Positions 14,870 to 62,465 of a DNA stretch of 64,000 nucleotides are shown one piece after another; positions within the stretch are counted from its first letter, which is position 1; each line of letters begins with the position of its first letter. Position numbers and translations under genes: made by a program. The notes under the pieces are model-generated. The model searched no databases, was not told the origin of the DNA, and saw nothing but the letters and a program-made list of their open reading frames with translations. Origin of the DNA: Escherichia coli (GTDB lineage: Bacteria; Pseudomonadota; Gammaproteobacteria; Enterobacterales; Enterobacteriaceae); NCBI RefSeq assembly GCF_003334355.1, contig NZ_QOWP01000013.1, one strand, 5' to 3'.

Positions 14870-15237
14870 TGAGGCCGTTTCCGTGTCCATCCTTGTTAAA
14901 ACAAGAAATTTTACGGAATAACCCATTTTGCCCGACCGATCATCCACGCAGCAATGGCGTAAGACGTATTGATCTTTCAGGCAGTTAGCGGGCTGCGGGT
15001 TGCAGTCCTTACCGGTAGATGGAAATATTTCTGGAGAGTAATACCCAGTCTGTTTCTTTGATAATTGCGCTGTTTTTCCGCATGAAAAACGGGCAACCGA
15101 CACTCTGCGCCTCTTTGAGCTGACGATAACCGTGAGGTTGGCGACGCGACTAGACACGAGGCCATCGGTTCACACCCGGAAAGGCGTTACTTTGCCCGCA
15201 GCTTAGTCGTCAATGTAAGAATAATGAGTAAGTTACG
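14870..15237 (+). promoter_or_regulatory. rne promoter-proximal region and long 5' leader
   Basis: About 570 bp of non-coding sequence upstream of rne; rne is known to carry a ~360-nt autoregulatory leader; boundaries approximate. Confidence 0.5.
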
Positions 15238-18200
15238 ATGAAAAGAATGTTAATCAACGCAACTCAGCAGGAAGAGTTGCGCGTTGCCCTTGTAGATGGG
15301 CAGCGTCTGTATGACCTGGATATCGAAAGTCCAGGGCACGAGCAGAAAAAGGCAAACATCTACAAAGGTAAAATCACCCGCATTGAACCGAGTCTGGAAG
15401 CTGCTTTTGTTGATTACGGCGCTGAACGTCACGGTTTCCTCCCACTAAAAGAAATTGCCCGCGAATATTTCCCTGCTAACTACAGTGCTCATGGTCGTCC
15501 CAACATTAAAGATGTGTTGCGTGAAGGTCAGGAAGTCATTGTTCAGATCGATAAAGAAGAGCGCGGCAACAAAGGCGCGGCATTAACCACCTTTATCAGT
15601 CTGGCGGGTAGCTATCTGGTTCTGATGCCGAACAACCCGCGCGCGGGTGGCATTTCTCGCCGTATCGAAGGCGACGACCGTACCGAATTAAAAGAAGCAC
15701 TGGCAAGCCTTGAACTGCCGGAAGGCATGGGGCTTATCGTGCGCACCGCTGGCGTCGGCAAATCTGCTGAGGCGCTGCAATGGGATTTAAGCTTCCGTCT
15801 GAAACACTGGGAAGCCATCAAAAAAGCCGCTGAAAGCCGCCCGGCCCCGTTCCTGATTCATCAGGAGAGCAACGTAATCGTTCGCGCATTCCGCGATTAC
15901 TTACGTCAGGACATCGGCGAAATCCTTATCGATAACCCGAAAGTGCTCGAACTGGCACGTCAGCATATCGCTGCATTAGGTCGCCCGGATTTCAGCAGCA
16001 AAATCAAACTGTACACCGGCGAGATCCCGCTGTTCAGCCACTACCAGATCGAGTCACAGATCGAGTCCGCCTTCCAGCGTGAAGTTCGTCTGCCGTCTGG
16101 TGGTTCCATTGTTATCGACAGCACCGAAGCGTTAACGGCCATCGACATCAACTCCGCACGCGCGACCCGCGGCGGCGATATCGAAGAAACCGCGTTTAAC
16201 ACTAACCTCGAAGCTGCCGATGAGATTGCTCGTCAGCTGCGCCTGCGTGACCTCGGCGGCCTGATTGTTATCGACTTCATCGACATGACGCCAGTACGCC
16301 ACCAGCGTGCGGTAGAAAACCGTCTGCGTGAAGCGGTGCGTCAGGACCGTGCGCGTATTCAAATCAGCCATATTTCTCGCTTTGGCCTGCTGGAAATGTC
16401 CCGTCAGCGCCTGAGCCCATCACTGGGTGAATCCAGCCATCACGTCTGCCCGCGCTGCTCCGGTACCGGTACCGTGCGTGACAACGAATCGCTGTCGCTC
16501 TCTATTCTGCGTCTGATCGAAGAAGAAGCGCTGAAAGAGAACACCCAGGAAGTTCACGCCATTGTTCCTGTGCCAATCGCTTCTTATCTGCTGAATGAAA
16601 AACGTTCTGCGGTGAATGCCATTGAAACGCGTCAGGACGGTGTTCGCTGCGTGATTGTGCCAAACGATCAGATGGAAACCCCGCACTACCACGTGCTGCG
16701 CGTGCGTAAAGGGGAAGAAACGCCGACCTTAAGCTACATGCTGCCGAAGCTGCATGAAGAAGCGATGGCGCTGCCGTCTGAAGAAGAGTTCGCTGAACGT
16801 AAGCGTCCGGAACAACCTGCGCTGGCAACCTTTGCCATGCCGGATGTGCCGCCAGCGCCAACCCCAGCTGAACCTGCCGCGCCTGTCGTAGCCCCAGCAC
16901 CTAAATCTGCACCGGCAACACCAGCCGCTCCTGCCCAACCTGGGCTGTTGAGCCGCTTCTTCGGCGCACTGAAAGCGCTGTTCAGCGGTGGTGAAGAAAC
17001 CAAACCGTCCGAGCAACCAACACCGAAAGCAGAAGCGAAACCGGAACGTCAACAGGATCGTCGCAAGCCTCGTCAGAACAACCGCCGTGACCGTAATGAG
17101 CGCCGCGACACCCGTAGTGAACGTACTGAAGGCAGCGATAATCGCGAAGAAAACCGTCGTAATCGCCGCCAGGCACAGCAGCAGACTGCCGAGACGCGTG
17201 AGAGCCGTCAGCAGGCTGAGGTAACGGAAAAAGCGCGTACCACCGACGAGCAGCAAGCGCCGCGTCGTGAACGTAGCCGCCGCCGTAATGATGATAAACG
17301 TCAGGCGCAACAAGAAGCGAAGGCGCTGAATGTTGAAGAGCAATCTGTTCAGGAAACCGAACAGGAAGAACGTGTACGTCCGGTTCAGCCGCGTCGTAAA
17401 CAGCGTCAGCTCAATCAGAAAGTGCGTTACGAGCAAAGCGTAGCCGAAGAAGCGGTAGTCGCACCGGTGGTTGAAGAAACTGTCGCTGCCGAACCAATTG
17501 TTCAGGAAGCGCCAGCTCCACGCACAGAACTGGTGAAAGTCCCGCTGCCAGTCGTAGCGCAAACTGCACCAGAACAGCAAGAAGAGAACAATGCTGATAA
17601 CCGTGACAACGGTGGCATGCCGCGTCGTTCTCGCCGCTCGCCTCGTCACCTGCGCGTAAGTGGTCAGCGTCGTCGTCGCTATCGTGACGAGCGTTATCCA
17701 ACCCAGTCGCCAATGCCGTTGACCGTAGCGTGCGCGTCTCCGGAACTGGCCTCTGGCAAAGTCTGGATCCGCTATCCAATTGTACGTCCGCAAGATGTAC
17801 AGGTTGAAGAGCAGCGCGAACAGGAAGAAGTACATGTGCAGCCGATGGTGACTGAGGTCCCTGTCGCCGCCGCTATCGAACCGGTTGTTAGCGCGCCAGT
17901 TGTTGAAGAAGTGGCCGGTGTCGTAGAAGCCCCCGTTCAGGTTGCCGAACCGCAACCGGAAGTGGTTGAAACGACGCATCCTGAAGTGATTGCTGCCGCG
18001 GTAACTGAACAGCCGCAGGTGATTACCGAGTCTGATATTGCCGTAGCCCAGGAAGTTGCAGAACAAGCAGAACCGGTGGTTGAACCGCAGGAAGAGACGG
18101 CAGATATTGAAGAAGTTGTCGAAACTGCTGAGGTTGTAGTTGCTGAACCTGAAATTGTTGCTCAACCTGCCGCGCCAGTAGTCGCTGAAGTCGCAGCAGA

Positions 18201-18423
18201 AGTTGAAACGGTAGCTGCGGTCGAACCTGAGGTCACCGTTGAGCATAACCACGCTACCGCGCCAATGACGCGCGCTCCAGCACCGGAATATGTTCCGGAG
18301 GCACCGCGTCACAGTGACTGGCAGCGCCCTACTTTTGCCTTCGAAGGTAAAGGTGCCGCAGGTGGTCATACGGCAACACATCATGCCTCTGCCGCTCCTG
18401 CGCGTCCGCAACCTGTTGAGTAA
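15238..18423 (+). CDS. rne: Ribonuclease E
   Basis: 1061-aa ORF with N-terminal S1/catalytic domain, Arg-rich RNA-binding segment and acidic, Pro/Glu/Ala/Val-rich C-terminal scaffold. Confidence 0.97.
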
Positions 18424-18443
18424 TAATTAGCTCAAAGTAATCA

Positions 18444-18470
18444 AGCCCTGGTAACTGCCAGGGCTTTTTT
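18444..18470 (+). terminator. Rho-independent terminator of rne
   Basis: Hairpin agccctgg-taac-tgccagggct followed by tttttt directly after the rne stop. Confidence 0.75.
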
Positions 18471-18618
18471 ATTTCATCTTTGAATCAACATATTAAAATT
18501 CATCGAATGGCATCCTTGCTAACCAACAATGCAAAATAGGCAAAAAAATGCCCGCCCCAGCGATCCCAGAGCAGGCAGACAAAACATACCCAGTTTCATG
18601 ATATGTTTTAAAGCGAAA

Positions 18619-46090: not shown

Positions 46091-46195
46091 TGCCGGATGC
46101 GGCGTGAACGCCTTATCCGACCCACAAAGTCTTGCAAAATCAATAAATTGCAGGAACGATGTAGGCCTGATAAGCGTAGCGCATCAGGCAACTAC
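46091..46195. repeat. BIME: two REP elements in opposite orientation
   Basis: tgccggatgcggcgtgaacgccttatccgacc and gtaggcctgataagcgtagcgcatcaggcaactac. Confidence 0.75.
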
Positions 46196-55655: not shown

Positions 55656-56409
55656 GTTGTCACCCTGGACCTGGTCGTACATTTAAGAAATTAAATCATT
55701 TCAACTTGGTTGTTAACGCAACCTGTATTTTGTTAACGCTGCGTTACGATGGAAAGTATGTCTGCGGAAATATTTTTAATAACTCACCCGCGCGTTGTAT
55801 TTTTCTTTTTTAGTTCATACCAAAGTATTAAAACCCACGTAAATACGCTGTTATCTACGCAAAAAAATATTTTGTTTTCTTTTAAATCTCCGTTTTCCGC
55901 TATCAAAAAGCACCAGACAGTCATTCTTCTTGCCCGTCGCTGATTGCTGCGATATGTCTTGCGCACAAGCCGTGACAAACCTCGTCTTTTTGCAGTAAAA
56001 AATTGTCCACGGAGGTGTGGAGAAAAAACAAGAACGTTTTACATGACGAAAGGACTACACCGAAATATTTTTTATATGCATTATTAGTAAGTTATCACCA
56101 TTTGTATGATTTTTTAAAATTGTGCAATAAAAACCAAATGTACAACTTTTCTATCATTTCTAAACTTAATAAAACCTTAAGGTTAACATTTTAATATAAC
56201 GAGTTACATTTAGTTACATGTTTAACACTTGATTTAAGATTTGTAATGGCTAGATTGAAATCAGATGTAATCCATTAGTTTTATATTTTACCCATTTAGG
56301 GCTGATTTATTACTACACACAGCAGTGCAACATCTGTCAGTACTTCTGGTGCTTCTATTTTAGAGGCAGCTGTCAGGTGTGCGATCAATAAAAAAAACGG
56401 GGTTTCATC
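55656..56409. promoter_or_regulatory. Divergent csgBAC / csgDEFG intergenic control region
   Basis: 754-bp AT-rich spacer between divergent csgB and csgD starts; known hub for OmpR/CpxR/IHF/H-NS/RpoS input and sRNA targeting of the csgD leader. Confidence 0.8.
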
Positions 56410-61953: not shown

Positions 61954-62041
61954 GGTGAGGTGTCCGAGTGGCTGAAGGAGCACGCCTGGAAAGTGTGTAT
62001 ACGGCAACGTATCGGGGGTTCGAATCCCCCCCTCACCGCCA
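61954..62041 (+). tRNA. serX: tRNA-Ser (long variable arm, anticodon GGA)
   Basis: 88-nt sequence GGTGAGGTGTCCGAGTGGCTGAAGGAGCACGCCTGGAAAGTGTGTATACGGCAACGTATCGGGGGTTCGAATCCCCCCCTCACCGCCA with 7-bp acceptor stem, T-arm GGGGG-TTCGAATC-CCCCC and encoded CCA. Confidence 0.95.
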
Positions 62042-62465
62042 TATTTAAAAAAAAGCCCGTACGAAAGTACGGGCTTTTTTTTCGTATATTGCACACACCG
62101 GGGGGGATGAGAAGCCCCGACCGGGGGTCGACAACTGGCGACAGCCAGTTGGACAGACCGTGAACGCAGTGAGCGGGCTGCCCGCAGGGCGAGCGAAGCG
62201 AGTCAATCCCCCCCTCACCGCCATATTTAAAGAAGAGCTCGTACGAAAGTACGGGCTTTTTTTTCGTATATTGCACACACCGGGGGGATGAGAAGCCCCG
62301 ACCGGGGTTCGACAACTGGCGACAGCCAGTTGGACAGACCGTGAACGCAGTGAGCGGGCTGCCCGCAGGGCGAGCGAAGCGAGTCAATCCCCCCCTCACC
62401 GCCATATTTAAAGAAGAGCTCGTACGAAAGTACGGGCTTTTTTTTCGTATATTGCACACACCGGG
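62023..62465 (+). repeat. Tandem direct repeat (~181-182 bp period, about 2.4 copies), each copy beginning with the last 19 nt of tRNA-Ser
   Basis: aatccccccctcaccgcca occurs at 62023, 62205 and 62386; each is followed by a near-identical terminator hairpin and structured spacer; copies differ by a few substitutions and a 1-nt G-run length change. Confidence 0.9.
62047..62082 (+). terminator. Symmetric rho-independent terminator after serX
   Basis: aaaaaaaa-gcccgtac-gaaa-gtacgggc-tttttttt perfect hairpin with A/T runs on both sides. Confidence 0.85.

Follow-up and report, generated by a model that had tools for sequence, protein, structure and literature searches.

Long open reading frame antisense to the RNase E scaffold region of Escherichia coli is very probably a noncoding shadow of its host gene

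Introduction

The strand opposite the 3′ half of rne in Escherichia coli carries an open reading frame (ORF) of 560 codons, and the question raised by this locus is whether so long a frame is a gene in its own right or a reflection of the composition of the gene that it overlaps. Passages of Mir et al. 2012 (PMC3454372), citing Merino et al. 1994, ascribe long ORFs in the codon-aligned antisense frame ("frame −1") chiefly to codon usage. For embedded antisense genes, the parts of the literature drawn on here describe pop opposite ompA (PMC7103648), ano (PMC5960689), laoB (PMC5810103), and olg1/olg2 (PMC8850804), from E. coli and Pseudomonas, as supported by transcription, ribosome footprints, and phenotypes, with purifying selection as additional support for olg1/olg2 (PMC8850804). 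A preliminary description of the rne locus, made from the nucleotide sequence, had put the antisense frame down to biased and repetitive codon usage in the host gene and had held the segment to be prone to in-frame indels. Here, we follow up that description with tests of chance, conservation, and selection. Throughout, "the window" means the whole 64,000-nucleotide stretch of DNA that was analyzed.

Results

The antisense frame is in codon-for-codon register with rne

The actual gene at this locus is rne (15238..18423, plus strand), identified from the ORF list and an NCBIfam match, which encodes the 1,061-amino-acid ribonuclease E. The product matched the RNase E equivalog model NF008074 over its full length (residues 1 to 1061) with 2,007 bits, well above the curated cutoff of 908. 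The surroundings are those of an enterobacterial rne gene, with the rne5 5′ untranslated leader element (14877-15213; Rfam, 260 bits) preceding it and flgL and flgK, on the minus strand in the ORF list and RefSeq records, lying downstream. The region matched that of E. coli PSS-12 at 100% identity, and among 5,426 complete E. coli genomes, nearly all had an identity of at least 97%; the RefSeq annotation beneath the match was rne alone in every E. coli match inspected. The noncatalytic scaffold half spans codons 499 to 1061 (16732..18420, plus strand) and is rich in Glu, Ala, Val, Pro, Arg, and Gln. It contains the arginine-rich RNA-binding segment AR2 (codons 796 to 819) and the enolase-binding site (codons 823 to 850), together at 17623..17787 on the plus strand according to the residue ranges in PMC5758883. 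The plus-strand gene is a full-length E. coli RNase E, with no difference from the known C-terminal scaffold of the RNA degradosome in gammaproteobacteria.

The 560-codon antisense frame was present exactly as first described, at 16729..18411 on the minus strand of the ORF list, with a TTG start at 18411 and a TAA stop opposite the TTA codon of rne Leu498 (16729-16731). The stop-free stretch as a whole is slightly longer, 16732..18426 or 565 codons, and is closed on its upstream side by a TTA triplet (18427..18429 on the plus strand) just beyond the rne stop codon, which reads as a stop on the other strand. Antisense codons and rne codons coincide (18409 − 15238 = 3171 = 3 × 1057), and therefore an antisense stop is possible solely where rne uses TTA or CTA for Leu or TCA for Ser. 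All 11 antisense stops in this frame lie at such codons, and all of them fall within rne codons 1 to 498, the last being the Leu498 TTA at 16729; codons 499 to 1061 contain none. The hypothetical product has 85 Arg, 74 Phe, 69 Leu, 49 Thr, 22 Cys (4%), 18 Trp (3%), 6 Glu, and 2 Lys residues, a composition that is the mirror of the rne scaffold composition. The several shorter ORFs reported over the region were also all found in the ORF list, on both strands: a 122-amino-acid ORF in another antisense frame (17411..17779, minus) and others at 16734..17003, 16982..17176, and 16502..16900 (minus) and at 16988..17224 (plus).

Composition and codon usage bring the open frame within reach of chance

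The scaffold half contains 82 Glu, 80 Ala, 65 Val, 64 Pro, 56 Arg, and 46 Gln residues but only 22 Ser and 15 Leu, and Leu and Ser together make up 6.6% of its residues, compared to 16.7% in the genes of the window. These Leu and Ser residues are encoded by CTG, TTG, CTC, TCT, AGC, AGT, TCG, and TCC. Leu was encoded by CTG in 12 of 15 cases in the C-terminal half compared to 30 of 50 in the N-terminal half, and by TTA or CTA in 0 of 15 compared to 9 of 50; the hypergeometric p value for this contrast is 0.078, or 0.028 when combined with Ser. A check of composition by codon position, which had been proposed with the preliminary description, gave a T frequency of only 5% at position 1 of the scaffold half. 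Position-specific base composition was considered as the sole cause of the open frame and rejected because it still predicts about 13 stops, a hand estimate from the position frequencies (0.05 × 0.18 × 0.26 + 0.34 × 0.18 × 0.26 + 0.05 × 0.33 × 0.26); amino acid composition and the choice of Leu and Ser codons are needed as well.

How unexpected the open frame appears depends on the null. Against an average gene, in which TTA, CTA, and TCA together account for 2.3% of codons in the window genes, the probability of 563 free codons is 2 × 10⁻⁶. The null that we regard as fair holds the RNase E protein sequence fixed. With the codon usage of the window, about 4.5 stops are then expected and the probability of none, P(0), is 0.008; with the codon usage of the rne N-terminal half, P(0) is 0.013. 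Permuting synonymous Leu and Ser codons within rne gave a P of 0.03 to 0.04 and a median longest run of 296 codons. When the same permutation was applied across the window to the 45 nonshadow ORFs of at least 200 amino acids, rne ranked second, and 3 of the 45 genes (7%) reached p ≤ 0.05, which is the rate expected under the null. The rne frame is, in other words, a mild outlier (p of ~0.01 to 0.03) that fails correction for multiple testing. Its length is within ordinary chance for a host of this composition: on composition and codon usage alone, about 3 to 4.5 stops are expected (P(0) of 0.008 to 0.04), and arriving at zero also takes some luck. A second case in the window is a 374-amino-acid ORF opposite a 477-amino-acid gene at 303..1736, a gene that has a single TTA, CTA, or TCA codon.

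As an observation in its own right, zero stops had odds of some 30 to 100 to 1 against it for this protein sequence, and composition alone is not fully predictive.

The frame is broken in most relatives and in some E. coli strains

The comparison across species covered 80 Enterobacterales rne loci, one genome per species, 78 of them from species other than E. coli. Of these 78, 73 carry antisense-frame stops in the C-terminal half (median, 4) and 5 have none. The stops add up to 399 over the 78 species, compared to 234 expected from the N-terminal codon usage of each species. For instance, there are five in Escherichia albertii, three in Salmonella enterica arizonae, and one to five in Citrobacter; a divergent E. 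coli also has one. Among the other species, stops recur at codons 798, 824, 828, and 837, within the conserved AR2/enolase microdomain, which bears Leu and Ser. A good example is Leu828, encoded by TTA in E. albertii, Salmonella, and two Citrobacter loci and by TTG in E. coli. Column by column, antisense stops have been gained and lost through both synonymous and nonsynonymous changes, and this coming and going among relatives means that the fully open state is recent and lineage specific.

Within E. coli, 15 strains were chosen across the range of identity. Ten keep all 563 codons open, four are interrupted by CTA581, TCA594 (two strains), or CTA947, and one lacks 203 codons. EC-1639, FDAARGOS_1256, and FDAARGOS_1259 are natural strains with silent rne alleles that create antisense stops. 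The 10 open strains are 97.7 to 100% identical, so their openness reflects inheritance and is not independent evidence for maintenance. The open frame is thus neither conserved among orthologues nor maintained across strains and species in the way of a functional gene.

Selection acts on RNase E and not on the antisense frame

If the antisense frame were a real gene, rne might show synonymous constraint at the overlapping codons, a result that the preliminary description had named as one that would overturn its reading. No such constraint was found. The synonymous rate (dS) of the C-terminal half was at least that of the N-terminal half between species, with 0.60 compared to 0.41 for E. albertii; for the divergent E. 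coli, the values were 0.42 and 0.33. Among five informative pairs within E. coli, C-terminal dS was at least as high as N-terminal dS in two and slightly lower in three (0.051 to 0.061 compared to 0.064 to 0.080, resting on a few dozen differences). Codons with a conserved amino acid varied synonymously at a fraction of 0.44 in the C-terminal half and 0.37 in the N-terminal half within Escherichia, and at 0.89 and 0.78, respectively, over 17 taxa. There was no local dip in synonymous variability anywhere across rne codons 499 to 1061.

Substitutions point the same way. Between the window and the first nine E. coli loci, single-nucleotide polymorphisms (SNPs) in the C-terminal half lie mostly at third positions of the sense frame, where 172 are synonymous and 78 nonsynonymous; read in the antisense frame, the same SNPs are 58 synonymous and 192 nonsynonymous. 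The dN/dS ratio by the Nei-Gojobori method was 0.10 to 0.27 for the sense frame of the C-terminal half, a low ratio which means that RNase E is under purifying selection there. For the antisense frame, it was ~1.0 to 1.6 against other species, where inter-genus dS values above 1 are saturated and alignment of the disordered tail is imperfect, and 0.54 to 1.28 within E. coli, where substitutions are few. The antisense frame, then, is without purifying selection of its own and leaves no synonymous constraint on its host.

Gene signals in and around the antisense ORF

Scans of the antisense protein against Pfam and NCBIfam returned zero matches, an exact look-up of three ATG-start versions of it in a collection of 15 billion proteins found none of them, and the ORF is unannotated in all RefSeq records inspected. 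The TTG-start version was absent from that collection as well but is left out of the count, since its first residue may have been entered as Leu instead of Met. Rare Arg codons (CGG, AGG, AGA, and CGA) account for 54 of its 85 Arg codons (64%). A CAI-like index of codon adaptation was 0.62 for the antisense ORF, 0.77 for the rne C-terminal half, and 0.82 for the N-terminal half.

Reading along the minus strand, the ORF comes after two terminators. The flgL terminator-like hairpin, with 12 pairs and a T run (18577-18549, i.e., 18549..18577, minus strand; terminator scan), is predicted to end minus-strand transcription ahead of rne. The rne terminator hairpin follows, an inverted repeat at 18443..18466 that is terminator-like on both strands. 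A consensus scan between both terminators and the ORF found no promoter-like site, and the TTG start at 18411 lacks a usable Shine-Dalgarno sequence; an in-frame ATG at 18384 is preceded by AGGAG at a distance of 10 nt. Such consensus scans are weak evidence either way. No Rfam family was found inside the region of the antisense ORF in a scan of the whole window.

Repeats and length changes in the rne tail

The repetitiveness attributed to the region at the nucleotide level (recurring gaagaa and gttgaa and cgt-rich runs) was borne out. GAAGAA occurs 5.9 times per kb in the region and 0.35 times in the rest of the window, GTTGAA 4.2 and 0.24 times, and CGTCGT 3.6 and 0.19 times, an enrichment of 17- to 19-fold. 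Tandem repeats as the form that it takes were rejected: Tandem Repeats Finder detected no tandem array in 16600-18500, and the repeats are instead short, dispersed, imperfect motifs of 14 to 37 nt.

The related claim, of a proneness to in-frame indels, stood between genera but not within E. coli. Compared to the window, E. albertii differs by 4 indel events and Salmonella, Citrobacter, Enterobacter, and Klebsiella by 15 to 22. These indels are all in-frame and all located at codon 552 or beyond, and many of them copy a motif found nearby, as does RDNRDNRDNR at codon 622. RNase E length ranges from 997 to 1,251 amino acids among the Enterobacterales loci. By comparison, a check of C-terminal length among E. 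coli strains showed no change in 29 of 30 matches spread across the species. The one exception is the assembly of E. coli GN4738, where an in-frame deletion of 609 bp (17463..18071, codons 742 to 944), possibly an assembly artifact, falls exactly between two copies of the 13-bp direct repeat ACCGGTGGTTGAA on the plus strand, the left copy at 17463..17475, at the left deletion endpoint, and the right copy at 18072..18084. Judged from the residue ranges, AR2 and the enolase-binding site would be lost in this deletion.

Discussion

The antisense ORF is, with high probability, a noncoding shadow ORF of the RNase E scaffold region, and we infer that it makes no protein. The pattern is of a known kind, ordinary and already explained. 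Most residues of the disordered scaffold half are Glu, Ala, Val, Pro, Arg, Gln, or Thr, none of which has a codon that mirrors into a stop. Leu and Ser are few, and in this lineage they are encoded by CTG, TTG, TCT, and AGC. With Leu and Ser so scarce, some 3 to 4.5 antisense stops are expected in place of about 13, and the remaining drop to zero is put down to chance. Ordinary avoidance of TTA, CTA, and TCA, a low content of Leu and Ser, and modest luck jointly give the open frame. The preliminary reading, in which bias in the makeup and codon usage of the scaffold opens the frame, holds up in the data: the frame is broken in 73 of 78 species and in 4 of 15 E. coli strains, rne lacks synonymous constraint, and the antisense dN/dS is about 1.0 to 1.6 against other species.

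The alternatives can be weighed against the same evidence. An evolutionarily recent antisense gene that overlaps rne, is confined to E. coli, and encodes a basic, Phe/Arg/Leu-rich protein is in our judgment very unlikely. It would suit the unusual length, 565 stop-free codons at a p of ~0.01 to 0.03 given the RNase E sequence, and the in-frame ATG at 18384 with AGGAG upstream, and the literature reports embedded antisense genes from this species, ano and pop (on the strand opposite ompA) among them. However, such a gene would have its frame interrupted in E. albertii (five stops), in a divergent E. coli (one stop), and in 73 of 78 other species, would be split or truncated in 4 of 15 E. coli strains and lack 203 codons in a fifth, and would evolve at an antisense dN/dS of about 1 or above without imposing synonymous constraint on rne. 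Nor does the product resemble an established protein, with 64% rare Arg codons, 4% Cys, 3% Trp, and only 2 Lys, no family match, and no ATG-start version in the protein collection, and upstream of it stand two terminators and no predicted promoter. In addition, rne is absent from the supplements, as far as these were available to us, of a survey that covered antisense overlapping genes of E. coli (bioRxiv 10.1101/2020.11.18.388249). A variant of this idea escapes the tests of selection, namely, that complete opening of the frame came about only in the E. coli lineage, for instance when Leu828 changed from TTA to TTG, and that the frame has since yielded a very young, strain-variable de novo translated product too recent to carry a signature of selection; we regard it as equally improbable.

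The other two alternatives do without an antisense protein. Selection on rne itself might have removed rare, slowly decoded Leu and Ser codons from the scaffold half, for the sake of translation or mRNA stability, and left the open frame as a side effect. The shift of Leu toward CTG (12/15 compared to 30/50) and away from TTA and CTA (0/15 compared to 9/50) agrees with this (p of 0.078 for Leu and 0.028 with Ser), but the p value fails multiple testing, the 78 other species carry more such codons than their N-terminal usage predicts (399 compared to 234), CTA and TCA codons have been gained here in E. coli strains, and by the CAI-like index, the C-terminal half (0.77) does not exceed the N-terminal half (0.82). 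We consider such selection improbable, if somewhat less so than a young gene. Least probable of all is a noncoding antisense RNA from the minus strand that regulates rne and to which the open frame would be irrelevant. Antisense transcription is common in E. coli, and this general commonness is all that speaks for such an RNA, positive evidence for it at this locus having been sought without result. However, on the minus strand neither the region nor the sequence immediately preceding it shows a promoter-like site, the terminators belonging to flgL and rne intervene, and the region has neither an Rfam match nor excess nucleotide conservation.

Comparable frames are known. Like the "frame −1" ORFs in the passages of PMC3454372 cited above, the ORF here is codon aligned opposite an annotated gene, its stops mirror the rarely used codons TTA, CTA, and TCA, its length follows from the composition of the host, and it is neither conserved nor under selection. 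It differs from the account given there in that amino acid composition counts as much as codon preference. With pop/ompA (PMC7103648), ano (PMC5960689), laoB (PMC5810103), and olg1/olg2 (PMC8850804), as described in the parts of those papers drawn on here, it shares that it is long and wholly embedded on the opposite strand. Unlike them, it is broken in close relatives, its antisense dN/dS is about 1 or above, rne is without synonymous constraint, and no expression signals are predicted.

If this ORF were a true gene, no other embedded antisense gene of E. coli would match its length, and it would lie inside an essential gene; the evidence is strongly against this. The value of the finding is mainly that of a negative result, in that one of the longest unannotated ORFs flagged in a scan of an E. 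coli genome is the mirror of the RNase E scaffold. A small p value for a single gene, here ~0.01 to 0.03, was insufficient to settle the matter, and it was the comparison of orthologues together with the test of synonymous rates that decided the question. The antisense ORF opposite rne should accordingly be neither annotated nor pursued as a gene.

Length variation in the RNase E scaffold and its downstream flank

The most recurrent indel hotspot of the scaffold among the Enterobacterales rne loci (L001 to L080) was the Arg-rich segment at codon ∼622 (window ∼17101). RDN/RDT-type tripeptide repeats vary in number at this site, and Salmonella, Citrobacter, Enterobacter, and Klebsiella carry 8 to 12 residues more than E. 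coli. In E. coli GN4738 (L088, NZ_CM177114.1), rne has a natural 609-bp in-frame deletion, equivalent to window positions 17463 to 18071, which leaves an RNase E of 858 aa compared to 1061 aa. The deletion lies between two 13-bp direct repeats, ACCGGTGGTTGAA, and could be either genuine or an assembly collapse. Codons 742 to 944 would be lost, including the arginine-rich RNA-binding segment AR2 and the enolase-binding site. Downstream, some E. coli strains (L086, L090, and L094; locus positions 3528 to 4312) have an insertion between rne and flgL that encodes a TacA-family antitoxin (DUF1778) and a GNAT acetyltransferase toxin; the window lacks this pair at the corresponding site (∼18430 to 18618).

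Synonymous variability and RNA elements

A local dip in synonymous variability (0.15 compared to ∼0.4 in neighboring windows; nine Escherichia sequences) was seen at rne codons 341 to 380 (window 16258 to 16377), in the catalytic half and outside the 560-aa antisense ORF. This dip may be sampling noise. Variability among Escherichia was also low at codons 1 to 60 (0.12 to 0.25 compared to ∼0.4 elsewhere). The 5′ UTR of rne contains its autoregulatory element, rne5 (14877 to 15213, + strand; Rfam RF00040, 260 bits). Other Rfam matches in the window, taken at the gathering threshold, were the SraB sRNA (12848 to 13016, −) and, on the + strand, the PyrC leader (36946 to 36995), the sRNAs ES036 (CssrF; 46126 to 46168) and ES056 (56263 to 56354), a tRNA (61954 to 62038), and RtT RNA (62268 to 62404).

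A second long antisense ORF

The window holds a second long, codon-aligned antisense ORF, of 374 aa (306 to 1430, +), facing a 477-aa gene (303 to 1736, −) whose size and neighborhood suggest that it is ptsG. TTA, CTA, or TCA accounts for only 1 of the 477 codons of this gene, and the ORF is a shadow-ORF effect, as opposite rne.
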